The position numbers and the translations under genes are program-made. Positions 3,376 to 52,612 of a DNA stretch of 64,000 bases are shown piece by piece. Source of the DNA: Justusliebigvirus alia; the sequence record OZ035799.1; one strand, given 5' to 3'. Below the pieces are notes generated by a model. It was not told the DNA's origin. It made no database searches and was given only the letters and a program-made list of their open reading frames with translations. Each line of letters begins with the position of its first letter. The first letter of the stretch is position 1.

Positions 3376-3437
3376 TTGACAGTAGGCAAACAACGTAGTA
3401 AAGTTTATCACATAGGGCGGGAAATGGTTTCCCGCTC
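3376..3437 (+). promoter_or_regulatory. PeSL-like cassette (TTGACA-N17-TAAAGT + hairpin GGGCGGGAAATGGTTTCCCGC)
   Basis: promoter hexamers plus inverted repeat. Confidence 0.65.
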
Positions 3438-3458
3438 ACAACAAAAGAGAAACAAATC

Positions 3459-3629
3459 ATGATCCCGACTATGTTTTACGTATCGCGCAAAGGTCACAAT
3501 ATTTTTTGGTCTGAAGATTTAAATGAAGCCATGACGTTTGCCCGTGATCGTGTTGCTATCGGTGGCGTTAATATTACCGTAACCGATGAAAACGGCATTG
3601 AATACTACAACGGCGACGATGAAGAGTAA
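3459..3629 (+). CDS. hypothetical protein (56 aa)
   Basis: ORF not in track; RBS AAAAGAGAAAC; directly behind PeSL cassette. Confidence 0.5.
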   Translation: MIPTMFYVSRKGHNIFWSEDLNEAMTFARDRVAIGGVNITVTDENGIEYYNGDDEE

Positions 3630-3636
3630 TTAATAA

Positions 3637-3658
3637 GGCGGGGGGAGTATTCCCCGCC
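3637..3658 (+). promoter_or_regulatory. GC-rich hairpin GGCGGGGGGA-GTAT-TCCCCGCC in 5-prime UTR
   Basis: inverted repeat 20 nt upstream of ATG 3678, no T-run. Confidence 0.5.
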
Positions 3659-3677
3659 ATCAATAAAGAGATAAATC

Positions 3678-3947
3678 ATGAAAATATCATTGGACGTTGC
3701 AATCAAGGCCATCGAATCCGGTTACACCCTGGTAAAAGATGATAAGGCTAAAATAGTGCATCATGTTAACAAGGAAACAGGCGAAAGCATGATCACATAT
3801 AAAGCCGCCTACTTTCTCCAATCAGTAGCAGATCCGCGCGTACAGCGCCAGGTCACGGCGGCTATTGCTAAAAAATTATGTGCTTTACAGGGCACAAGTT
3901 TTAACGAGATCCCGCCGTGTTTTGACTGGTCGAGCTTGAAAAAATAG
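3678..3947 (+). CDS. hypothetical protein (89 aa)
   Basis: ORF with RBS AAAGAGATAAATC. Confidence 0.6.
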   Translation: MKISLDVAIKAIESGYTLVKDDKAKIVHHVNKETGESMITYKAAYFLQSVADPRVQRQVTAAIAKKLCALQGTSFNEIPPCFDWSSLKK

Positions 3948-3948
3948 T

Positions 3949-4005
3949 TTGACAAAAATTATAAATCGGGTAGAATGTATTTCGTAGGGCGGCAATAGTG
4001 CCGCT
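3949..4005 (+). promoter_or_regulatory. PeSL-like cassette (TTGACA-N17-TAGAAT + hairpin GGGCGGCAATAGTGCCGCTC)
   Basis: same hairpin sequence as at 177-196. Confidence 0.65.
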
Positions 4006-4027
4006 CGCAACTAAAAGAGAAATCATC

Positions 4028-4222
4028 ATGGCGCTTAAAAAACTAACAAGCAATACTCGTTGGGATGAAATCGACGGGGAAGTATACATTTTCGCCCGTA
4101 AACCAGGTGATCAAAAATGGTCAAAGGCTTTTACTTGTCACCCTGCAACAATAGATCTAATAAAAAGTAAAGGTTTACGTGAAGCAGTAGCGAGAAGTTT
4201 ACTGATTCCTTGTAAAAAATAG
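4028..4222 (+). CDS. hypothetical protein (64 aa)
   Basis: internal ATG of ORF 3998..4222 behind RBS AAAAGAGAAATC. Confidence 0.5.
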   Translation: MALKKLTSNTRWDEIDGEVYIFARKPGDQKWSKAFTCHPATIDLIKSKGLREAVARSLLIPCKK

Positions 4223-4223
4223 T

Positions 4224-4285
4224 TTGACAATATGCGGTTATCTGGTAAAGTGTACCACGTAGGGCGGGGCAATAAGGCAACGCCC
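4224..4285 (+). promoter_or_regulatory. PeSL-like cassette (TTGACA-N16-TAAAGT + hairpin GGGCGGGG...CGCCC)
   Basis: promoter hexamers plus inverted repeat; followed by a 34-aa membrane-peptide ORF at about 4304. Confidence 0.55.
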
Positions 4286-4418
4286 ACTAATGAGGGTAAA
4301 ATCATGTTAGAGAAAATTTTCACGGTTGTAATAGTGGGCCTGGCGTTATCGGTTGGAGTGATTGCAACTATGGCTAACATGATCCTATCTTCCCACGGTA
4401 TTGGATAAGGTGAATCAA

Positions 4419-4634
4419 ATGATCACGAATAAGACAGGTAAAACGGAATTTTTACGCGGCTTGCAAATAGGTAAACCTGAGATCTGGCATTGCACTAAAA
4501 GACCACGTGACGAAATGAAAGATTTCACCGCTACTTTACAACGTGTTAAAATATCTATCACACAGAAAAAAGCCTTGTTAGTAGTAGAAAACGAGATCCC
4601 GCAAACCATTATTATTGTCGAGCGTACAGCATGA
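4419..4634 (+). CDS. hypothetical protein (about 71 aa)
   Basis: ORF track 4401..4634; start ambiguous (4401 or 4419). Confidence 0.5.
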   Translation: MITNKTGKTEFLRGLQIGKPEIWHCTKRPRDEMKDFTATLQRVKISITQKKALLVVENEIPQTIIIVERTA

Positions 4635-5017
4635 AAACTGAAATCATTAACGAAATGATCAACGGCTATAAAGAAGCCTTTATTTTTGCCGAACCAGCGA
4701 CGGATCACAATGGGGAATATATTGAGAATCTAGACGATTATGATTTTTCTCCTAGCGCCCTGAAACGTATTACCAGCGATGTGACCGCCTTTTGTAGTGC
4801 CAATGTTGCCGCTATCTCTGAGGCAATGAGCGACGGCGCAACAGCAAACCAGATCGGGAATGACTTACATTTCACCCGTAACGGTCACGGCGTAGGCTTT
4901 TGGGATCGCCCTGAAATATACACTACTAACACCGCCAACCGCCTAACAAATGCAGCTAAATTAATGCCATCGGTGCATGCTTACATTGGTGAAGATAATT
5001 TGATTTATATTGAATAA
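4631..5017 (+). CDS. hypothetical protein (128 aa)
   Basis: ORF, start overlaps upstream stop (ATGA coupling). Confidence 0.6.
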   Translation: MKTEIINEMINGYKEAFIFAEPATDHNGEYIENLDDYDFSPSALKRITSDVTAFCSANVAAISEAMSDGATANQIGNDLHFTRNGHGVGFWDRPEIYTTNTANRLTNAAKLMPSVHAYIGEDNLIYIE

Positions 5018-13420: not shown

Positions 13421-13587
13421 TGCAAACATTTTTTATCGACAAGTTCAATAAAAGTATGAACACGTGGATGGCAACATTCACTATGCAATTTGCGTCATTT
13501 AAAGAAGCTCAAGAATGGTGCGATCAACACAAGGATTTTGATTTTTACTATCAAGTTAATGCAAACCTTTCTCCAGAGGAGAAATAA
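13420..13587 (+). CDS. hypothetical protein (55 aa)
   Basis: RBS GGGAGG before ATG 13420. Confidence 0.45.
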   Translation: MQTFFIDKFNKSMNTWMATFTMQFASFKEAQEWCDQHKDFDFYYQVNANLSPEEK

Positions 13588-13588
13588 T

Positions 13589-13933
13589 ATGTTAGCTGAT
13601 ATTGAAATCCTTATGTACCGACAAGGTATGATCAAAATGTGGCTAGATTCTTTTAGCAACATATACTGCACAGTACGATCAGCAGACGAGCGTAAAACGC
13701 TTATTTTATCTGCTATTGTTGATAAACAACGTTTCTTCAAAGAAATTTTGCAAACAGGCTTCTCCGATGCAGGAGTAGAGATTGCAACGCTTAGTCTTGG
13801 AGTGCTGTCTTACTTGGAATCCGTTGTTTTATATGTCTTCTCTTTAGAAGAACACTTGCAATTTGAAGCATTAAAACTTATCTTAGATGCTGCAATTGAC
13901 ATAGAACAAAATCGAATTGATTCTTTTGAATAA
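13589..13933 (+). CDS. hypothetical protein (114 aa)
   Basis: internal ATG with RBS GAGGAGAAATAA. Confidence 0.55.
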   Translation: MLADIEILMYRQGMIKMWLDSFSNIYCTVRSADERKTLILSAIVDKQRFFKEILQTGFSDAGVEIATLSLGVLSYLESVVLYVFSLEEHLQFEALKLILDAAIDIEQNRIDSFE

Positions 13934-13949
13934 AAATAAGGAGGAAACT

Positions 13950-14408
13950 ATGCAAGAGGTTAAACATTATCCACATGGTCGTAGTTTTGTAGCTGTATGG
14001 CATGTTCCTGCTCGTAATGAACTATTTTGTGCATCTTTTCATTACAAAGATGGACAATATTTCACCTATGACGAAACGATGGATGATTTTATCCCAGAGT
14101 GCGATCATGGGTATACACCAATGTTCTTTAAACGTATGAAAGCTCGTTTCTTCGTTACAGATGTTGATGGTGAACCTACTTGGCACATCGAAGAAGATTG
14201 GCAAGATTCTGTGGATATTAAAGAAGCCCCAGAATGGGCTACATTACTGGTACACGTCAAAACCCCTACTCTTGACGTTATGGCGTGGGTTAATCATGAT
14301 GATACCCATTACCAATACATAAATGGTAGCACAGAGATTTCTGGTGAGATTATTGGTCGTTGGAAGCCTACGAATCAGGTTGCTATTGTCGGGTATAAGA
14401 CAGTATAA
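13950..14408 (+). CDS. hypothetical protein (152 aa)
   Basis: RBS AAGGAGGAAAC. Confidence 0.65.
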   Translation: MQEVKHYPHGRSFVAVWHVPARNELFCASFHYKDGQYFTYDETMDDFIPECDHGYTPMFFKRMKARFFVTDVDGEPTWHIEEDWQDSVDIKEAPEWATLLVHVKTPTLDVMAWVNHDDTHYQYINGSTEISGEIIGRWKPTNQVAIVGYKTV

Positions 14409-14409
14409 T

Positions 14410-14604
14410 ATGAAAAATAGTGTAGATTGGGATGATTTATCCGATTTTGAAAAATGGTTCTTAGGTAGTGGTTGTTATGCAGATGGGGATCTCGAAAGAG
14501 ATCCTTCTGGAAACTACACTATGCCATTAACCCAAGGTTTTTATGAGTGCTGGTGCGCAGCACAAAACAACGTACTGAATAAGGAGACAACACAATGCAA
14601 TTAA
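14410..14604 (+). CDS. hypothetical protein (64 aa)
   Basis: internal ATG of ORF 14323..14604. Confidence 0.45.
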   Translation: MKNSVDWDDLSDFEKWFLGSGCYADGDLERDPSGNYTMPLTQGFYECWCAAQNNVLNKETTQCN

Positions 14605-14834
14605 ACATCGGACAACCCATTTTTGATGCAGATACTGGTCAATATGCAGTGATTGTTGCTCGTATGAGCGGTGATGACCTTATTGTTTCAGAACTACTCG
14701 GATCAGATCCACAACTGCGCGTAGTATGTGACCTATATCTTCGAGACGAAAGTGATCGCATTGCACTGAAAGAAGATGGTATGCTCTACTATACCTGGAC
14801 TAGAGATCCTGGGGTAACGGAGGTAGAGGTATAA
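14595..14834 (+). CDS. hypothetical protein (79 aa)
   Basis: RBS AAGGAGAC. Confidence 0.6.
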   Translation: MQLNIGQPIFDADTGQYAVIVARMSGDDLIVSELLGSDPQLRVVCDLYLRDESDRIALKEDGMLYYTWTRDPGVTEVEV

Positions 14835-20543: not shown

Positions 20544-21356
20544 TTACTTAGTCAAATGATCTTCTATCATTTTTATGAAAGCAGGATTGCTAAAAGCATC
20601 TGCTGCCTTTTCTCTATAAACAAAGACTCCTCTATCTTCGTAAAGAAGAGTTTCTTCGTAATTAATTCCTGGGTTAACAACAATCATTTTTGTACCCATA
20701 CTAAGTGCAGGGAATAATTCCCAATTAAAATTGATAACTTGGTTTGAACATCCTACTACAACAACCAAATCTTGCATGGTCAAAGTATCAAACAAGTGAG
20801 CCATATCTGCATACAAAGGTGCAGCCTCACCAAAAAATACAACATTAGGCTTCACCCAATTATAATCATCTATGTTTATACTATTGTAACCAATGTCTAC
20901 CAGTGTTTTGTAATCTCCAGGATGCATACGGTAAACTACTTCAGGAAGATACCCGTGCACGTGAATAACAGAATCCCTGTCCACACCTGCTCGCTCTAGT
21001 AGATCATCAACGTTTGTTGTCAAGTTTACTACTTGGTTAGGATATTCCTTAAACCACTTTGCTATTTGAATATGTGCAGCATTAGGTTGTACATCTTTAA
21101 GCTCAACACGTCTTTTGTTATAAAATTCGTGTGTTTTGGCATACAAGTCCATACCGTTCTCGTCTACACCACCGACCACTGGAAGATCTGGTGATGTTCT
21201 CACACGATAACCTGCTTGGAAAGCTCCAATATCGCAGATCTCTTCTAAATCCCATTCTTCCCATAAGGCACGACCACTATCTGTGTCTGTTCGGAATGTT
21301 CGAATCCCACTGTCTGCACTTAAACCAGCTCCACTAACAAAAATTACTCTTCGCAT
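20544..21356 (-). CDS. Sir2-family (sirtuin-like) NAD-dependent protein lacking the zinc-ribbon module
   Basis: motifs GAGLSADSGIRTFR, QPNAAH, TTNVDDLLERAG, HVHG, VVFFGE; no CxxC pairs. Confidence 0.75.
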   Translation of the reverse strand: MRRVIFVSGAGLSADSGIRTFRTDTDSGRALWEEWDLEEICDIGAFQAGYRVRTSPDLPVVGGVDENGMDLYAKTHEFYNKRRVELKDVQPNAAHIQIAKWFKEYPNQVVNLTTNVDDLLERAGVDRDSVIHVHGYLPEVVYRMHPGDYKTLVDIGYNSINIDDYNWVKPNVVFFGEAAPLYADMAHLFDTLTMQDLVVVVGCSNQVINFNWELFPALSMGTKMIVVNPGINYEETLLYEDRGVFVYREKAADAFSNPAFIKMIEDHLTK

Positions 21357-21913
21357 TCAATATCCTCTTCGTAATCATCATCCCAAGAAGATGCATCGTA
21401 ACGCTCTTCCTCTTCGAAATCCCAATTAATTTCTACTCCAAAATCTAAAAACAATTTAACAATGTTTTCTGTAGAATAGTATTTATCATAAGCGTTAGCT
21501 AGTTCCCAATACTTGTCACTCAATTTTTTATAAGTAGGATCATTATAGTCATAATCTACTTTATAACCATAGTCATACATCTCTTGTTCAGCTTTAAGCA
21601 TAGCTTCTGGTGTAAGAAGATTAGGGAACGGACGATTTCTTTCTTTTAACTTAGAAGCGATCCAGTTTGCAACATTCACCACTTCACCATCTCGATTATC
21701 ACCTAAACAACTTGCATAATCTCCATCTTCGTAAGTGCCTAAATCCCCACTAACTTCATGTACAATAGACGAATACGATCCACACGTTTCACAATCTGAA
21801 AAAGTGTCTACTGTTGTAATATCAACAGATAAAACTGGTAAAGCCATAGCTTCTTTCACACAAGCCTCCTCATATAATAACATGTCATCAAAACCCATAT
21901 ATCCTCCAGACAA
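21344..21913 (-). CDS. acidic hypothetical protein (189 aa)
   Basis: ORF overlapping Sir2 start; D/E/Y-rich. Confidence 0.55.
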   Translation of the reverse strand: MSGGYMGFDDMLLYEEACVKEAMALPVLSVDITTVDTFSDCETCGSYSSIVHEVSGDLGTYEDGDYASCLGDNRDGEVVNVANWIASKLKERNRPFPNLLTPEAMLKAEQEMYDYGYKVDYDYNDPTYKKLSDKYWELANAYDKYYSTENIVKLFLDFGVEINWDFEEEERYDASSWDDDYEEDIECEE

Positions 21914-22685: not shown

Positions 22686-23675
22686 CTATTCCTCCATACA
22701 TTTAAGAATATGTGCAATGACAGGTATAGTCCAACCGTTACCTAACATCTTATATGCTTGTGTATTACTACTCACTTTAAAGTAGTCATCTGGCACACCT
22801 TGCAAACGGCAACACTCTTTAACGGTTAACTTTCTATAATGTACGCCTTCACTCAATTTTTCAAAAGCATCTAAATATCTTCCAGGTGGAATGTAAGCTA
22901 ATAGTACGTCTTTCGGCACAGTCGTGAGGCAACGAGTTTTTTCACTGTCCTGAACTTCCAAACAATGTACCAAACGATCAGTTTTAGATGTACTACGTTT
23001 GCCATTTTCATTAATTCTACGCCCATATATTGCTGCTGGATAAAAAACCAGTTGTCTGCGACTCTTTTCAAAATACTGTTCTATATTACCACCTTTGGCA
23101 TAATTTGCATCTATGCAATAAGCCTTATCTCTGTCTACAATACTATCATCTTCAATGATATCTTGCAACACTTCATTGGTAATATCCCAGGGTTTTATTT
23201 CCCAGTTGCACCAGTATAAACGTTGTCTATTCTGTGCCGTGAAATCTGCGGAGTTAATGAATACGGGATCAACACCTAAGTAACTTGTGATCACGTTTTC
23301 CCACTCCACTTTCATCTTAACGTTTTCGAGCATGAACTTAACATTAGGGTTAAACTTTTTAATATGTTCAAGAATCTCAACATATTCGAAGAATAGCTTA
23401 GATCGCGGATCTTGAAAGTTCAAACCCTTACCAGAAGAAGAGAAGCCTTGACACGGACTACCACCTAACAAAAGATCAATTTCTCCCCACGGAATATCCC
23501 ATTCTCTCCATTTTGTAACATCGCCTAACTGAATAATATCTGGAAAATTTGCTTGGCTTTCAGCTATGGCGAATTTGTCTAATTCTGAAGCATAATATGT
23601 ATCTACTTCAATACCTGCACTTTTTAGCGCAAGCATTCCTCCTGACATACCATCAAAAAGACTTAAAACTTTCAT
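22686..23675 (-). CDS. DNA cytosine-5 methyltransferase
   Basis: motif I FDGMSGG, motif IV GSPCQGFS, motif VI ENV. Confidence 0.8.
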   Translation of the reverse strand: MKVLSLFDGMSGGMLALKSAGIEVDTYYASELDKFAIAESQANFPDIIQLGDVTKWREWDIPWGEIDLLLGGSPCQGFSSSGKGLNFQDPRSKLFFEYVEILEHIKKFNPNVKFMLENVKMKVEWENVITSYLGVDPVFINSADFTAQNRQRLYWCNWEIKPWDITNEVLQDIIEDDSIVDRDKAYCIDANYAKGGNIEQYFEKSRRQLVFYPAAIYGRRINENGKRSTSKTDRLVHCLEVQDSEKTRCLTTVPKDVLLAYIPPGRYLDAFEKLSEGVHYRKLTVKECCRLQGVPDDYFKVSSNTQAYKMLGNGWTIPVIAHILKCMEE

Positions 23676-27715: not shown

Positions 27716-28378
27716 TTATTTAATATTCAATTTTGCACAAAGACGTTGTACCGCTTTGGCATCGAACAAACTCCCACGAATAGTTCTCTTTCCTGATTCA
27801 TTCAGATGCTTTGCAATCGTCATATATGGCGTTCTACAAGCTCTGTATGCAACTAAAGAATCTTTTAAAGAAAGCGCAAACTCTCTTGAGCGTTTTGCTT
27901 CTTCCGTTTTCGTATAATCTGTTCTTTTGTATTTAGGGTTTGCTGCACCAAGAAGCGTTCCCTTCGCTTTTGCTACCTTAAGGCTCTTCTTAACACGATC
28001 AGATATTGCACGAGCCTCTTCTTCTGCCAGAACTGCTAAAATATTTATTATCATATTTTCAGCGGAGGGCATAGTTGCAATCCGTACATTAATCATCTCT
28101 AACAAGGTTGCAACAGAAGCTGTGTTACGTCCAAGACGGTCAACCTTAGCAACAACAAGTGTAGCACCTGTTTCTTTGCAAAGATTAACAGCTTTTACAA
28201 GCTCTCTACGTTGCTTCCAATCGCCTTTACCAGAATAAAACTCTGCAAAGCTACCTACAATAGTATAATTTTCTTGTGAATCCAGGAAGCGTTGGATATC
28301 TGCTTCCTGTGATTCTATACCATACTGGTTGCCTTGTTGTTTCTTCTTAGAAAGTCGATGATACAGTACAAACTTCAT
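27716..28378 (-). CDS. small serine recombinase (resolvase/invertase family) with C-terminal HTH
   Basis: N-terminal YHRLSKKKQ...GIESQ and LVVAKVDRLGRN motifs. Confidence 0.75.
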   Translation of the reverse strand: MKFVLYHRLSKKKQQGNQYGIESQEADIQRFLDSQENYTIVGSFAEFYSGKGDWKQRRELVKAVNLCKETGATLVVAKVDRLGRNTASVATLLEMINVRIATMPSAENMIINILAVLAEEEARAISDRVKKSLKVAKAKGTLLGAANPKYKRTDYTKTEEAKRSREFALSLKDSLVAYRACRTPYMTIAKHLNESGKRTIRGSLFDAKAVQRLCAKLNIK

Positions 28379-28651: not shown

Positions 28652-28890
28652 TCGTTGTTACGAGCACTTTCAAGAACCTTGACAACTTCTGCATACTCTA
28701 CAGCTAAACCAGCACACACTTCAGCTTGTTTTGCAATTGCTTGTTTAAAGAACATAGCGATTGCAACACTCTGTGTTGTGTGAATGTTATCTGCTTTAGT
28801 TGATACATGAAGATCAAAATCTTCTTCATCAAAGGTGAGTTCCATAGTAACAATAAATTTCTCGGTCATAAAAATGCTCCTCTTAAACAA
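28639..28890 (-). CDS. hypothetical protein (83 aa)
   Basis: ORF. Confidence 0.5.
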   Translation of the reverse strand: MFKRSIFMTEKFIVTMELTFDEEDFDLHVSTKADNIHTTQSVAIAMFFKQAIAKQAEVCAGLAVEYAEVVKVLESARNNDWEE

Positions 28891-29392
28891 AATAGAAAGG
28901 TTGAGTTAAACCCAGCCTGTTTTTTGGGTCGTAGACGTACCAAGCATATGCTGTCTTGTCAGTACCACCTGCAACAAAAGATGGTCGTTCAGAAAGAACG
29001 ATCAAATTTGTTGGTGGATTCTGTTTATGGAATTCCCTTCGTTTAATAGACTCTAGGAACCCAAGACGCAACAAGTATATGCAAACGTCTGCTTCTTTTA
29101 AGCTCTTTTGCAAGAACTCAAGTGCAAGTCTGAATGGTGGATTTGTGATTATAATATCCGGCTTAGTATGCCATTCGTGGTTAAAATAATCCTTCCCTTC
29201 TTCTAACTCACAATATTCTGATCCTTCTGGAAAATGTTGATAAATTGCAGCAGCAGCGCCTTTACACGGTTCTGCAAAAATAAAACCTTCTTCTTTAAGG
29301 TTATTAAAATCTATTACACTAAATAATGCATTTATACATTTTTGTGGAGTAGGATAGTAATCAGTTGGTGGACGATCATACTTATTTGCCAC
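28883..29392 (-). CDS. SAM-dependent methyltransferase, probable DNA N6-adenine/N4-cytosine type
   Basis: IITNPPF catalytic motif, DYYPTP N-terminal motif. Confidence 0.55.
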   Translation of the reverse strand: MANKYDRPPTDYYPTPQKCINALFSVIDFNNLKEEGFIFAEPCKGAAAAIYQHFPEGSEYCELEEGKDYFNHEWHTKPDIIITNPPFRLALEFLQKSLKEADVCIYLLRLGFLESIKRREFHKQNPPTNLIVLSERPSFVAGGTDKTAYAWYVYDPKNRLGLTQPFYFV

Positions 29393-29810
29393 TACTTAAA
29401 ATCTCCTCTTTTGTGATTTCAGGGTCTTCTTCAAAAACCATAATATCTCTTAAGAACGTTAATTCTTCCATAGATACTGGTATTGTATCTTCTTCTGTTT
29501 TTCGTTTACATAAATCGTCAAGAAAGTTTTTAAAGTTTTCTGACAAATCATAAAATTTCAACAGTTGATAATCACAGGAGGAGATCCTATCTAGTTCTAA
29601 CATTCTTTCTAAGATATTTTCTGTGTTGCCGTACAACACACGAACTTCTCCAAAAGGGTTGACTGAATATTGTGAAGTTCTGAACCATCCCTTTTTAGAT
29701 ACAGTGTAACGCTGTTCTGCTAAACTTTCAATAAAATTTTTAGCTCTTTTACAGTTTTGTTCTAAAGAGTAGTAGGCTTTTTCTACAAAGGTTACAGGTA
29801 CTGGTAACAT
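29382..29810 (-). CDS. hypothetical protein (142 aa)
   Basis: ORF. Confidence 0.55.
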   Translation of the reverse strand: MLPVPVTFVEKAYYSLEQNCKRAKNFIESLAEQRYTVSKKGWFRTSQYSVNPFGEVRVLYGNTENILERMLELDRISSCDYQLLKFYDLSENFKNFLDDLCKRKTEEDTIPVSMEELTFLRDIMVFEEDPEITKEEILSSGK

Positions 29811-29852
29811 ATCTCCTCCTAATAACCCCCCTTGAAGGGGGTTTATACTAGA

Positions 29853-30506
29853 TTAATTATCAGAGGACACTTTATCAAGTTTTTCAGAGACTGTCAATAC
29901 TTTTTCTTGTGATTCTTTCATTTCTGCTAAAATACTTTCAGCTTCATCACTATCAGGATCACCAGTCAACAGCATACTAATTAGTTGCTCCTTGCTGAAG
30001 TTCAGAATATCTTCCGCTGTTAGCTCCAGTTGTTCTTCGATCTCTTCGATAAAAGTTTCACCGCCGGAAAAAGCATCTCGTAGTTTTGCAACTTCCATCG
30101 CTTCTTCTGGAGTTGCCCCTGCATCTAAAGCTGCTAAAGCAAAATCTGCCCCACTACCAACAGCATAATAATCTTCAGTTAAAGGATATGCTCGCGTGGG
30201 ATTATTACCCTCGTGCATATAAATTTTACCGTCTGGGTGAACAACCAATGCCACAAACTCTTCATCTTCTTTATCAGGATCTGACTGGATCACCAAACCT
30301 GGGATTGTCTCTTGTGCTGCTTGGCATTGTAAGTTTTGTTCGAACCAAGAAAAGAAAGTCAGGATAGAAGACAGACGTCCTGCACCACCAACAAGGTAAT
30401 CCCCAATTTTACGCACTTTCTTGAAATTTAAAGTGTCTACACGACTACCTACTGTTACTTTACCGTCAGACAGAATTTTGTTACGTGTTGCAATAATTGT
30501 TGTCAT
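29853..30506 (-). CDS. HslV/ClpQ-like N-terminal-nucleophile peptidase (proteasome beta-subunit fold) with acidic C-terminal extension
   Basis: starts MTTIIA (Thr2 nucleophile after Met), KKVRK, AVGSGADFALAALDAG resembling HslV GSGG region. Confidence 0.7.
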   Translation of the reverse strand: MTTIIATRNKILSDGKVTVGSRVDTLNFKKVRKIGDYLVGGAGRLSSILTFFSWFEQNLQCQAAQETIPGLVIQSDPDKEDEEFVALVVHPDGKIYMHEGNNPTRAYPLTEDYYAVGSGADFALAALDAGATPEEAMEVAKLRDAFSGGETFIEEIEEQLELTAEDILNFSKEQLISMLLTGDPDSDEAESILAEMKESQEKVLTVSEKLDKVSSDN

Positions 30507-30997
30507 TGTACTTCCTCCTGTAGTGTTTTAAGGACTGCTTTACCACCGCTTACATATTTACGGAGGTAATCAATAGCTCTTAGTGTTTCTTTATCCACAA
30601 GAATTTTATTAGTTCTTGTTAGTGGATGATTTAGTAAATCACTGCAATTTCTTACTAACATAGATTTCTTGTGAAAGATACTGCTAAGAAAAAGAAGTTT
30701 AGAATCTTCTTCATCAATCAGGAGTAATTCTGAATTAGACCCAGCTATATTTATTATACACTCAAACAAGCCTTCTTGACTATCAGATAATTCCTGGTAA
30801 TATTTAGTTAGCCAATCCTCGCCTTTTAACCAACTAAAAAACATCTGAACTTTTTGCAAAGTTGTCATGTTCTCTAAACGAAGAGATATTTCTTTTTCAA
30901 TCTTGTCAATATAAATCTGTCTAAACTCATTCGGCTTAACTAAGCCAGCTTGATAGCATTCATCAATACCATTGCGATCAATCTCAATTAGCGTCAT
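30503..30997 (-). CDS. hypothetical protein (164 aa), translationally coupled to HslV-like gene
   Basis: ORF overlapping downstream start by 4 nt. Confidence 0.6.
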   Translation of the reverse strand: MTLIEIDRNGIDECYQAGLVKPNEFRQIYIDKIEKEISLRLENMTTLQKVQMFFSWLKGEDWLTKYYQELSDSQEGLFECIINIAGSNSELLLIDEEDSKLLFLSSIFHKKSMLVRNCSDLLNHPLTRTNKILVDKETLRAIDYLRKYVSGGKAVLKTLQEEVQ

Positions 30998-31033
30998 TTA
31001 ACCTCCATAACAGGCATCCTTGCCTTGTAATTA

Positions 31034-31786
31034 TTAATATACTTCCGTAATGAACTGAGACAAACGGGAACGTTGGTTATCAGCAGTTGTCATTTCAACA
31101 TAACCAATAAAATCCACAATAGCTTCCCTTTCTCCTTCTTCATTAATAGGAACAACACGATCTAACAAATCACCTAACCCGTTAGCTCTTCGTTTAATTG
31201 CATATGTTTGATTAACATCACCCATAATGACAATACGTGTATTAAGACCTGCTCGCTCAAGGAGAAGTTTTACTGTATTTGGTGACATAAGTTGAACTTC
31301 ATCAATAAGAATAATGCTGTTATCCCACGTAGCACCTAGTGCATAGTTTGGAATATTAAGTTCAATTTTGCCACTTGCAATATCGTTTTCCAATTTATTT
31401 GCAGTCATAAACTGTTGGAAAATTCTTTTAGTTGATTCATAGTGTGCTGCTAGTTTATCAGTCTTATCTCCAGATAAGAAACCAATTTGATCATCACCTA
31501 CTTCTGTCGGGTTTTTAAGGAAAATCAACTTTCTGAAATCACCAGCTTTAAGCATTTGCAATGCTTTCCATAGTGCTGTTGTTGTTTTTCCTGTTCCTGC
31601 TGGGGCATTAACAATGGTTAAATCATTCCAAACCATGCTTCTTACAATAGCTTCTTGATTCCCAACAGGGGTAAATTCATCAAGACGGTAATCATCATTT
31701 CCTACTGCTTTAGCCGCATAACGACTGGCACGTTTGTCATCATTGGCTGCTGATTGACGACGAGCCTTTGCGGTTTTGTTTCCCAT
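31034..31786 (-). CDS. phoH: PhoH-like ATPase
   Basis: Walker A NAPAGTGKTT and PhoH-like length/architecture. Confidence 0.8.
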   Translation of the reverse strand: MGNKTAKARRQSAANDDKRASRYAAKAVGNDDYRLDEFTPVGNQEAIVRSMVWNDLTIVNAPAGTGKTTTALWKALQMLKAGDFRKLIFLKNPTEVGDDQIGFLSGDKTDKLAAHYESTKRIFQQFMTANKLENDIASGKIELNIPNYALGATWDNSIILIDEVQLMSPNTVKLLLERAGLNTRIVIMGDVNQTYAIKRRANGLGDLLDRVVPINEEGEREAIVDFIGYVEMTTADNQRSRLSQFITEVY

Positions 31787-31801
31787 GTTTGCACTCCTTA
31801 T

Positions 31802-31824
31802 AAAAGGGGCTTTCGCCCCTTTGT
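31802..31824 (-). terminator. terminator hairpin GGGGCTTTCGCCCC
   Basis: recurrent hairpin with flanking A/T runs. Confidence 0.6.
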
Positions 31825-32325
31825 TTAGTTATAAGCGTCTAATGTTCCAGTTTTAAGTACCTGAATTACACGCTCTGCGCGATTAGGCGTTTGGCGATAC
31901 CATTTACTTTTACGTAAATTTATAGAGGCTTGAGTATAATATGAATTACTCACTAAAGTCAAGCTATTTTTGAAAGATTCTGCACCTTTCAACCCCATTT
32001 GAAATACCATATTAATAATAGCCATTTTACGATTAGGACTTACTTTATCGTAAATAGGAGATAGTATGGTACTTGAATGGATTTGTTGTATCGCTTTCTT
32101 TACATCACTCTCAAAGATTTTTCTAACTTCCGCTTCAGTAATAACTCCATTGGTTTTTCTACCTACTAAGTTATCAAGAATGCGTATAGCTTCTGCTTTA
32201 TCTTTGCGTTTTGTCAGAAGGTGTCCAATACCAACTGTCCAATACCCTTCGGTATCAGGATATACAGTTAGCTTTAGTCCTTCATCAAAACGTAACATAT
32301 CAAACACATCAACTACTTTAGCCAT
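31825..32325 (-). CDS. T4 e-type lysozyme (endolysin)
   Basis: close match to T4 lysozyme along its length (DEGLKLTVYPDTEGYWTVGIGHLLTK, NMVFQMG, WYRQTPNRAERVI). Confidence 0.9.
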   Translation of the reverse strand: MAKVVDVFDMLRFDEGLKLTVYPDTEGYWTVGIGHLLTKRKDKAEAIRILDNLVGRKTNGVITEAEVRKIFESDVKKAIQQIHSSTILSPIYDKVSPNRKMAIINMVFQMGLKGAESFKNSLTLVSNSYYTQASINLRKSKWYRQTPNRAERVIQVLKTGTLDAYN

Positions 32326-32337
32326 GTTTTCCTTATA

Positions 32338-32481
32338 TCAGTCGCCCTCCCCATGATCTAGCTCTTGAAACAGTAGGTGTTCAGGAGACATTTCACGTTT
32401 AGGCTTCGTCTTTTTAGTTTGGGACTTAAGCTCTGTTGCCAAAGCACGAGAAAAGATCTTACGTTTCTGTTTACCTTTCAT
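32338..32481 (-). CDS. small basic hypothetical protein (47 aa)
   Basis: ORF not in track. Confidence 0.35.
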   Translation of the reverse strand: MKGKQKRKIFSRALATELKSQTKKTKPKREMSPEHLLFQELDHGEGD

Positions 32482-51274: not shown

Positions 51275-51679
51275 TTATTGTAGCTTAAGTGAACTGCGAA
51301 GACGTTTTTCTTGCTGATCACGAATATGTTGTGGAACCTCATGAATTGAGTCGTTACCGTGCCTATTTTCAACTACTAAAGAGATAACTTGATAACCAAA
51401 CTCTTCAGCAAGAGTTAAATAAGGTTTAAGTTCTTTCTCTGTGGTTGAAGTGTTAGAGACAATAATCTTTTTAATATTAGATGCCATAGCATCACGAACA
51501 ATACTCTGACACCATGCGTGTGCTTTACCTACATTCTCTGGCTTCCAATCGTAAACACCACTTTCTGTGTAATGATATTGATCTGCCTCACAGATAGGCC
51601 AATAACCTTCAGAAATAATTTCTGCTACTGTAGATTTACCTGCACCTGAAACACCACGTAAGATGATAAGTTGTTTCAT
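51275..51679 (-). CDS. P-loop kinase, polynucleotide 5-prime-kinase-like
   Basis: Walker A GVSGAGKST at N-terminus. Confidence 0.55.
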   Translation of the reverse strand: MKQLIILRGVSGAGKSTVAEIISEGYWPICEADQYHYTESGVYDWKPENVGKAHAWCQSIVRDAMASNIKKIIVSNTSTTEKELKPYLTLAEEFGYQVISLVVENRHGNDSIHEVPQHIRDQQEKRLRSSLKLQ

Positions 51680-52612
51680 TTAGCCTCCAAAGAAGTTTTC
51701 TATTTCTTTACGTCTCTCTTGTGGGTCGAGAGCAGCCCATTGAGCCTTCGTAAATTTATTTCGAAGCCATTCTAGCAAAGTATAATATTCTTCGTCAACA
51801 ATTTGTTTAGCATTGTTTGGGTTGTCCCAAATCATATCCCACTTCTTATTGCCACCACGCATAAGGAATTTCTTAGCAAGATAGTATGGTGACTTAATCT
51901 TTAACAGTAAGTTAAACGGATAGTTTGTTTCACGAACAACAAACCCTTCGTGTTTACAATGTTTAGACATTTCAACAACATCTGAAAATTTAATCATCGG
52001 ATAAACTTCAGGACGTTTAAACTTTGTAATAGATGCAATCCCATCAAGAACACCTTCAGGTAACATGAAACTTGTCCCATCAAGATTTTGAATTCTTGCT
52101 CCAATTAAGTATGCGCCTGGTTCTTCTTCGACAATATGTGGATCAGAAGGATCACAGATTTCAAAAAGAAAAGTTGCTTTTGCACTTTCTGTCCACTTAA
52201 TGAAATACTCTATGTCGTCACACTCGGAAACAATACGGTTCTTTGCCATAATTGCGAAATCTGATTCTAGGCTCCCTGTTGTTGATACAACAAGTTTCCC
52301 TTTGTACACACCTACAGATGCCATAAAACCGTTTACTTTACGGACAGCATCTACAATTTCGTCTGCTGGAAGATCTGTACCATTTTCAAAACGATTAAAG
52401 ATTTTAGTAAAAGGCCAAATAACAACATTGTCTTCTGAGTCAACAACCAACCCACGACAATCTAGAAGTCGTTTGTCAACGTTCCACAAATTATCCCAGA
52501 ATACATTATTTTTGTATTTAAGCACAGCAAGACCAGCATACTCTCCAGATTTAACTTCTTTTTTATGCACTAAACCTTTTGCAATCAGGTCATCACAATT
52601 GAACTTAGCCAC
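51680..52612 (-). CDS. RNA ligase-like nucleotidyltransferase (putative tRNA repair ligase)
   Basis: KxNG motif (RKVNGF); between kinase and phosphoesterase genes. Confidence 0.5.
   Translation of the reverse strand: MAKFNCDDLIAKGLVHKKEVKSGEYAGLAVLKYKNNVFWDNLWNVDKRLLDCRGLVVDSEDNVVIWPFTKIFNRFENGTDLPADEIVDAVRKVNGFMASVGVYKGKLVVSTTGSLESDFAIMAKNRIVSECDDIEYFIKWTESAKATFLFEICDPSDPHIVEEEPGAYLIGARIQNLDGTSFMLPEGVLDGIASITKFKRPEVYPMIKFSDVVEMSKHCKHEGFVVRETNYPFNLLLKIKSPYYLAKKFLMRGGNKKWDMIWDNPNNAKQIVDEEYYTLLEWLRNKFTKAQWAALDPQERRKEIENFFGG

Follow-up and report, generated by a model that had tools for sequence, protein, structure and literature searches.

Locus and catalytic core of gp058

The stretch analysed here, hereafter the window, comprises 64,000 nucleotides of Justusliebigvirus alia (OZ035799.1) and corresponds to the last 64 kb of a genome of ~148 kb. 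It carries the gene for gp058, a threonine peptidase of the proteasome/HslV superfamily, preceded by an overlapping gene for an all-alpha protein, gp059 (Table 1). Over positions 28800-32400 the window matches Justusliebigvirus alia at 100% identity and shares 98.7-99.1% identity with phi92 and ~50 other phi92-like Escherichia coli myoviruses, which identifies the source as a phi92-like E. coli myovirus (Justusliebigvirus). The peptidase is identical or near-identical to phi92 gp058 (YP_009012389), with 100% cluster membership, and the members of its cluster share 98.6-100% identity across Justusliebigvirus genomes. The gene itself is no discovery: the phi92 record has borne the label 'putative 20S proteasome' since its original version (2012), later records use 'peptidase HslV family', 'putative proteasome component' or 'nucleophile aminohydrolase', and the lone phage proteasome homologues PPH, AAH and CPH, which have no AAA+ partner, have already been catalogued as a family (Fuchs, Alva, Lupas et al. 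2021, PMC8665760).

An earlier note on this DNA, made from the letters of the window, had ascribed to the protein an HslV-like (proteasome-type) peptidase fold, and the profile searches and structure prediction that it proposed bear this out. gp058 matches phrog_1040 ('peptidase HslV family') with an E-value of 1.3e-61 and the Pfam Proteasome family PF00227 with 25.1 bits, above the gathering cutoff of 22.4, while HslV chains of the PDB match it down to an E-value of 5e-8. Modelled alone with AlphaFold2 (AF2) from an input alignment of 18 sequences, the protein reached a mean predicted local distance difference test score (pLDDT) of 81 and showed a beta-sandwich core with an N-terminal Thr. 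Foldseek matched this model to the archaeal 20S beta subunit, to HslV and to the Betaproteobacterial proteasome homologue (BPH) with a probability of 1.0 and E-values of ~1e-9, at TM-scores of 0.64-0.68 normalised by target length. The modelled architecture is the four-layer alpha-beta-beta-alpha sandwich with an N-terminal nucleophile (Ntn) expected of the superfamily, and both the model and the profiles place gp058 in the proteasome-beta/HslV/BPH fold, with an Ntn-hydrolase beta-sandwich.

The catalytic apparatus is likewise preserved. The features singled out in the earlier note, namely the start MTTIIA that would expose Thr after removal of Met and the segments KKVRK (residues 29-33) and GSGADFALAALDAG (residues 117-130), are all present with the catalytic residues intact, and M1, T2, D14, K30, G43, S118 and G119 are invariant in the family alignments (A1 and A3). 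An exhaustive search with a hidden Markov model (HMM) recovered 8363 proteins at E<=1e-3, with 57 clusters better than 1e-30. Among the 151 best representatives at 50% identity, Thr2 is kept in 144 of 145, Asp14 in 147 of 148, Lys30 in 149 of 150, Gly43 in 151 of 151 and the G-S/T-G motif (117-119) in 149-151 of 151. The residues T2, D14, K30, G43 and S118-G119 are the equivalents of Thr1, Asp17, Lys33, the oxyanion Gly47 and Ser129-Gly130 of the proteasome (PMC8665760), so that the whole set expected of the superfamily is found in gp058. The host HslV begins with M/V-T-T-I-V and has the MTT start in common with gp058. Removal of Met1 by methionine aminopeptidase is the expected maturation route for such starts, and therefore also for the phage protein. 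On this evidence gp058 is apparently an active N-terminal-threonine peptidase with an intact catalytic set.

Position of gp058 relative to HslV and to homologues without helix H2

Several features indicate that gp058 is not an HslV orthologue. It scores 34.0 bits against the NCBIfam HslV equivalog NF003964 (cutoff 137) and 31.6 bits against TIGR03692 (cutoff 157.75). Where HslV has two apical helices, H1 and H2, with the basic pore cluster, the gp058 model shows one long helix, H1 (residues 45-67), and at the position of H2 a loop (about 66-84, drawn at 68-83 in the model), and its alignment with E. coli HslV contains a 12-residue deletion spanning the Arg86/Arg89/Lys90 segment. In HslV this cluster lines the pore, is required for activity and is remodelled upon binding of HslU (PMC5777263). 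The gp058 loop is acidic where the basic cluster sits (SDPDKEDEEF, with 7 D/E in 19 residues), and neither in the window, nor in the phage group, nor in Shewanella phage 1/40 is the peptidase encoded together with HslU.

These observations bear on the proposal, also made in the earlier note, that the peptidase might pair with a host unfoldase. According to this explanation, gp058 rings would dock on E. coli HslU or replace HslV, thereby redirecting ATP-dependent degradation during infection; gp058 and the host HslV do belong to the same superfamily and share the MTT start, and the host encodes HslU where the phage has none of its own. However, gp058 fails both equivalog models by ~100 bits, its H2 is deleted and an acidic loop replaces the segment that HslU remodels, which therefore makes pairing with the host HslU unlikely rather than plausible. 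In addition, the position aligned with HslV Lys28, which we take to be the anchor of the HslU C-terminal carboxylate, is variable and is occupied by Thr25 in gp058. In BPH, moreover, loss of the HslU-interface residues goes along with independence from HslU (PMC5777263). We thus consider a hybrid with the host unfoldase very unlikely.

PPH (the proteasome homologue of phages and their hosts) and RPC are the only proteasome homologues described without H2 (PMC8665760). An HMM built on the gp058 core gives 76-112 bits to H2-less proteins of 138-155 aa, compared with 42.8 bits for E. coli HslV, and the best-scoring neighbours outside the gp058 sub-clade are H2-less proteins of ~140-150 aa. Because PPH and RPC alone lack H2 and because the HMM ranks H2-less proteins above HslV, we describe gp058 as a compact H2-less core of PPH type followed by a C-terminal extension; the match is one of size and architecture, from which we infer membership of the class.

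A C-terminal extension defines a phage sub-clade

The end of E. coli HslV aligns with about residue 160 of gp058 and the modelled beta-sandwich core ends at ~157, so that the extension measures ~60 aa. It is acidic (16 D/E versus 5 K/R, pI 4.05) and lies outside the HslV fold, as the earlier note had recognised, the length of 50 aa given there being an underestimate. Its proximal part carries the motif LTAEDILNFSKEQLISMLLTG (L162-G182), of the general form L-T-x-E-x4-(F/M)-(S/T)-K-E-(E/Q)-L-(I/L)-x2-(L/M)-(L/F)-x-G, which is modelled as two short helices (residues 164-168 and 172-181, pLDDT ~70-79) and is kept down to the 30-36% identical homologues of Vibrio, Aeromonas and Shewanella phages. 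We found the pattern (S/T)K(E/D)(E/Q)(L/I)(L/I)..(L/I)F in 37 or more of the 151 representative clusters, and we use the motif as the hallmark of a C-extended sub-clade. The distal tail of gp058 is modelled as a long helix of low confidence (pLDDT 49-74) and is unconserved even among 70-80% identical relatives; across the sub-clade it varies in length and sequence, total protein length ranging from 183 to 350 aa. No Pfam domain scored above threshold in the extension, the best matches being FANC_SAP (E 0.18) and a Spo0E-like domain (E 0.03). The C-termini of these homologues point away from the presumed rings and have been considered possible interaction sites (PMC8665760). In 185,579 species-representative genomes of bacteria and archaea, a single contig of 425 bp was recovered for the sub-clade, besides a few distant homologues of 25-32% identity; the sub-clade is essentially confined to phages.

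Two variations on this architecture were observed in relatives. In the longer homologues of this sub-clade the C-terminus follows an HeH/SAP-like (helix-extended-helix) pattern, 'L...lG.......K..L...l' (e.g. YLDLVASEIGMVFEQPAANKSELLDAVL), which the window protein does not have. The support for this pattern is sub-threshold (FANC_SAP E 0.18, phrog_2130 E 4e-5 to 2e-4), and such an end might tether the longer peptidases to nucleic acid. Aeromonas phage 2L372D (NC_048769) has tandem phrog_1040 genes at 3432-3983 and 4001-4885, encoding proteins of 183 and 294 aa; the shorter one keeps Thr2, has G-C-G instead of G-S-G and scores 10 bits against the gp058 core, so that the two could form a heteromeric or pseudo-subunit arrangement.

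Coupling of gp059 to gp058 and genomic context

The translational coupling of the peptidase gene to the 164-aa reading frame, proposed in the earlier note, can be read directly in the sequence. The stop of gp059 and the start of gp058 overlap in an ATGA, and an AGGAGG ribosome-binding site, also annotated in the phi92 record, lies 7 nt upstream of the gp058 start, within the 3' end of gp059. The gene order lysozyme-PhoH-gp059-peptidase is kept in 19 of 19 related IMG/VR loci (phi92-/phAPEC8-like), with peptidases 41-100% identical to gp058, and in all 19 the gp059 stop is located -4 to +9 nt from the peptidase start. The order persists even in the two loci where the peptidase is only 41-51% and gp059 32-35% identical. 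This conserved coupling is the best evidence that gp059 and gp058 may form a functional pair.

The gp059 family consists of 34 clusters (phrog_14834) and matched nothing in Pfam, NCBIfam or PADLOC. Its AF2 model is a confident helical bundle (pLDDT 93), for which no informative neighbour was found in the PDB, and BFVD returned only two uncharacterised viral proteins. Since gp059 is undetectable in the Vibrio, Aeromonas and Shewanella phages that carry the peptidase, it is not essential for the basic function of the latter and is better regarded as a lineage-specific accessory.

Two further ideas on gp059 were examined. The tandem phrog_1040 genes of 2L372D and colinear FFSW, DEED and SGG patches had prompted the idea that gp059 is a degenerate peptidase paralogue, analogous to an alpha subunit; it was rejected, the hhalign probability being 0.1%, residue 2 unconserved and the model all-alpha. 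A universal gp059-like upstream partner is unproven, as neither HMM nor hhalign comparison of the gp059 family gave a significant match to upstream open reading frames (ORFs) in Vibrio, Aeromonas and other phages; the one Foldseek hint, a weak one with a probability of 0.57, was to a protein of 150 aa in Aeromonas phage 4L372XY.

The gp059-gp058 pair is bracketed by two hairpins, one with the GC-rich sequence CCCCC-TTGAA-GGGGG in the 42-nt gap directly 3' of the peptidase stop, the other a short one between PhoH and gp059. A third hairpin was noticed at 31803..31822, so that three successive intergenic gaps of this co-directional minus-strand block carry GC-rich hairpins. The scan found 5 terminator-like sites compared with 2.1 +/- 1.4 in shuffled sequences, with the T-runs on the plus strand; on the coding strand the hairpins would have no U-tail and might be RNA-processing or RNA-stability elements.

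As to the wider surroundings, the methyltransferases, the recombinase and the Sir2-like gene among which the earlier note had placed the peptidase are all present. They are not all adjacent to it: the Sir2-like gene, which overlaps the start of the next ORF (21344..21913), lies ~8.5 kb away.

Table 1. Coordinates of the peptidase gene, its parts and its surroundings (window positions unless a locus is named)
Feature	Position	Strand	Basis or remark
gp058, proteasome/HslV-superfamily threonine peptidase CDS, 217 aa	29853..30506	-	ORF, phrog_1040, PF00227, AF2, Foldseek
Catalytic beta-sandwich core, residues 1-157	30036..30506	-	AF2 model, invariant alignment columns
Thr2 codon	30501..30503	-	Part of catalytic core
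Conserved extension motif, L162-G182	29961..30023	-	Alignment, AF2
Variable acidic tail, residues 183-217 and stop	29853..29960	-	Alignment A1, AF2, charge count
gp059, 164-aa all-alpha protein, putative partner	30503..30997	-	phrog_14834; stop/start coupling
gp059/gp058 junction	30503..30519	-	Sequence; ATGA overlap 30503..30506, AGGAGG Shine-Dalgarno 30514..30519
gp057, ORF downstream of gp058	29382..29810		phi92 numbering
GC-rich hairpin 3' of peptidase stop	29827..29841		Terminator-like scan
Short hairpin, PhoH-gp059 gap	31012..31025		Terminator-like scan
PhoH-like ATPase, upstream neighbour in the phage supergroup (context only)	31034..31786	-	Pfam PhoH, E 1.4e-35
Methyltransferase	28883..29392		Profile matches
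Serine recombinase	27716..28378		Profile matches
Second methyltransferase	22686..23675		Profile matches
Sir2-like gene (NAD-dependent deacetylase family)	20544..21356	-	phrog_2162, E 7e-104
HeH/SAP-like C-termini of longer homologues	L022:8001-8876, L023:8001-8873, L002:4001-4831, L004:4001-4723

Phage-encoded ATPases as candidate partners

The earlier note had stated that the peptidase has no HslU-like AAA+ partner, which holds for proteins of the HslU/ClpX type and for the window, and needs amending for the rest of the genome. A tblastn search at E<=10 found no HslU-like sequence in the window, whose P-loop ORFs encode PhoH, an exonuclease and a small kinase-like protein. When E. coli HslU was compared by tblastn with 50,697 phage records, the matches came from jumbo phages of Erwinia and Salmonella; records named 'Escherichia' numbered only 4, compared with more than 50 Justusliebigvirus genomes. 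Elsewhere in the genome there are, however, two classical AAA paralogues.

The two AAA ATPase genes are located at NC_052655 58476-59636 (386 aa; 13476-14636 of locus L029, minus strand) and 73617-74744 (375 aa; L029:28617-29744, plus strand). Their products score 29.4 and 38.9 bits against Pfam AAA PF00004 (cutoff 21.2), are 47% identical over 254 aa and have divergent C-terminal domains of ~120 aa; their best PDB matches, which are weak, are p97/Cdc48 D2, fidgetin-like and spastin. One could thus imagine a split phage 'mini-proteasome' in which one or both ATPases unfold substrates for gp058, the more so as both proteins carry Walker A, Walker B, sensor-1 and SRH-like Arg motifs with an aromatic residue at the pore-loop position, and are annotated 'FtsH-like' in some records. 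Against this, the genes are unlinked to gp058, and the proteins end in ...GGRSY and ...LASVF, without an HbYX-type C-terminus. The AAA family was found in 379 phage records, mostly Herelleviridae and jumbo phages that have no peptidase, and is largely absent from the Vibrio phages that do; the complete genome of Shewanella phage 1/40 encodes a C-extended peptidase with neither HslU nor an AAA of the phi92 type. We accordingly give the split arrangement little credence. This lack of co-distribution, together with the case of Shewanella phage 1/40, indicates that there is no conserved phage-encoded unfoldase partner, in agreement with the reported lack of co-occurring AAA+ proteins for these homologues (PMC8665760).

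PhoH was also considered as a functional ATPase partner and rejected, being absent beside the PPH-type genes of Kagunavirus, phiCbK-like and Rhizobium phages. In phi92-like, Vibrio, Aeromonas and Shewanella phages the genes follow one another as lysozyme-PhoH-(0-5 ORFs)-peptidase, and the PhoH-peptidase neighbourhood reads as inherited synteny, not as a signature.

Alternative functions for gp058

Several other roles were weighed. A first one is that of a prohead (capsid) maturation protease, which could be suspected from the RefSeq head module, where no head protease is annotated. This role is essentially refuted: the 159-aa gene right after the portal gene matches the XkdF/S78-type head-maturation protease (PF14550, 44.1 bits, cutoff 24; phrog_3017), gp058 sits in a metabolic gene block far from the structural genes, and it goes unmentioned in the phi92 virion structure paper. 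The gene after the portal (NC_052655 1410-1889, plus strand; L028:1410-1889) is labelled 'DNA methyltransferase' in RefSeq and matches Pfam Peptidase_S78_2 (XkdF) and phrog_3017 'head maturation protease'; the RefSeq label is probably a mis-annotation of the prohead protease.

Another explanation is that gp058 is not a protease, acting as an Ntn hydrolase or transpeptidase on another amide bond, as a connectase-like ligase or small-molecule amidase would, or serving as a catalytically silent scaffold. The proteasome-like family does include connectase, a ligase (PMC8665760), and BPH, for which no proteolysis was detected (PMC5777263). On the other hand, the full proteasome catalytic set is invariant in the gp058 family, which rules out the silent scaffold, and gp058 does not have the helical insertion between strands S3 and S4 that is specific to connectase. 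Altogether, a non-proteolytic gp058 seems to us quite unlikely.

A further possibility, raised in part by the earlier note, concerns the biological role rather than the mechanism and is compatible with the mechanism that we favour: gp058, guided by gp059 and/or by its C-terminal helix, would be a targeted counter-defence or host-takeover protease that cleaves a specific host defence or regulatory protein. The gene is in an accessory block rich in candidate counter-defence genes (Sir2-like, methyltransferases, a Prs-like and Nampt-like pair), and its distal tail and upstream partner are variable, as expected of arms-race genes. Yet there is no match to PADLOC or to an anti-defence family, PADLOC in particular returning nothing for gp057, gp058 and gp059, and no literature on such a role was found. 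Moreover, strong conservation of both core and motif extends over phages of hosts as diverse as E. coli, Vibrio, Aeromonas and Shewanella, which fits housekeeping in the phage cycle at least equally well. We hold a dedicated counter-defence role to be unlikely.

The pair just mentioned consists of a ribose-phosphate pyrophosphokinase-like gene (56072..56965, plus strand) adjoining a nicotinamide phosphoribosyltransferase-like gene (57037..58770, plus strand), and the same pair is found in Shewanella phage 1/40 (S140_100, S140_101). It is reminiscent of the NARP1-type pathway by which phages rebuild NAD+ in the face of defences that deplete it. Two other observations were made along the way. 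In the window, a small AAA_33 kinase-like P-loop protein (51275..51679, minus strand) adjoins a T4-type RNA ligase (51680..52612, minus strand), a pairing that we take to be typical of tRNA-repair modules (PNK plus ligase). Five records named as Campylobacter jejuni phages (MG065656, MG065639, MG065650 and others; 'C3 / A150 / B15') share 95-99.5% identity with genomes of the E. coli phage groups Justusliebigvirus and Phapecoctavirus, which probably reflects mislabelling or a contamination of the propagation host.

Proposed mechanism and significance

Overall, we favour the view, with a probability of about one half, that gp058 is a self-assembling, unfoldase-independent threonine peptidase for which gp059 and the C-terminal helix serve as regulatory or recruiting modules. 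The host methionine aminopeptidase would remove Met1 and expose the Thr nucleophile as in E. coli HslV (M-T-T-I), no propeptide being involved. The subunits would then assemble by themselves into rings with the active sites inside, as HslV and BPH do, and would need no dedicated AAA+ unfoldase, their substrates being peptides, unstructured proteins or proteins brought in by specific recruitment. Entry to the cavity may be shaped by the acidic loop found in place of H2 and of the basic pore cluster, and the C-terminal helix motif, expected to point off the ring, may act with the co-translated gp059 in recruitment, regulation or assembly. Expressed with the co-directional block for nucleotide metabolism and host takeover, gp058 would target host or phage cytoplasmic proteins during infection and not the capsid.

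Several points weigh against this proposal. First, the genome does encode classical-clade AAA paralogues, gp071 and gp101, 8-25 kb upstream of the window. Second, without H2 the subunits might form rings differently or not at all. Third, the Vibrio, Aeromonas and Shewanella phages noted above have the peptidase without gp059. Fourth, our literature search found no experimental papers on phage HslV-family peptidases. Finally, purified BPH, which among analogues without an unfoldase comes closest to gp058, was inactive on standard substrates (PMC5777263).

A bolder version of the proposal would make gp059 and gp058 a phage-specific two-component protease, in which gp059 caps, gates or feeds a ring of H2-less subunits through the apical face, which the missing helix leaves open, and/or the C-terminal helix. 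The complex, possibly supplied in phi92-like phages by their AAA ATPases, would eliminate a particular protein of the host, for instance one involved in defence or stress. We regard this as rather unlikely; if true, a viral proteasome homologue would for the first time have a function assigned to it, and the proteasome family would gain a new regulatory architecture.

Unfoldase-less proteasome homologues are a standing puzzle, and what they do is a real question, not a new one. To our knowledge, none of the proteasome-family peptidases without an unfoldase (PPH, AAH, BPH, Anbu) has a known substrate or physiological role. An enzyme that is conserved, has its catalytic set intact, is coupled to gp059 and belongs to a tractable E. 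coli phage (phi92 and BASEL collections) offers a convenient system for assigning such a function. What is new here is the placement of gp058 as an H2-less core of apparent PPH type, not HslV, the C-extended sub-clade with its helix motif, the conserved gp059 coupling, the arguments against HslU, PhoH and the phage AAA paralogues as partners, and the exclusion of a prohead-maturation role.

Comparison with known systems

The protein encoded in the window does not differ from phi92 gp058, and it is the same protein as that described by phrog_1040 'peptidase HslV family'. With HslV (ClpQ) it shares the fold, the M-T-T start with the Thr1 nucleophile, the Asp17/Lys33/Gly/Ser-Gly residues and ~28% identity over 130-157 aa. 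It is unlike HslV in scoring far under the equivalog cutoffs, in lacking H2 and the basic pore cluster, in having an H3-H4 loop shorter by 9 aa and an added C-terminal extension, and in the absence of an HslU gene.

BPH, a descendant of HslV, resembles gp058 by its intact active site, the absence of a partner unfoldase and an acidic segment at the pore position. It has, however, kept H2, its acidic pore loop, which joins H2 to S7, is long and ordered, and it forms tetradecamers (PMC5777263), whereas gp058 has no H2, so that only the acidity of the loop is common to the two.

The closest resemblance in architecture is to PPH and RPC. Like gp058, these are group-I proteasome-like proteins without a propeptide, with the Thr/Asp/Lys/Gly set, without helix H2 and without a co-occurring AAA+ protein, and PPH is carried by tailed phages; carriage by tailed phages was seen here in 166 and 323 phage records, with no co-distributed AAA+. 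Whereas PPH is a compact protein of ~140 residues without extensions, gp058 has 217 aa, made up of a 157-aa core, thus longer than PPH by itself, and a 60-aa extension. RPC, here compared by description, combines an H2-less core with an extra C-terminal domain, an arrangement that the architecture of gp058 would fit; RPC has, however, been reported only from proteobacterial genomes (PMC8665760).

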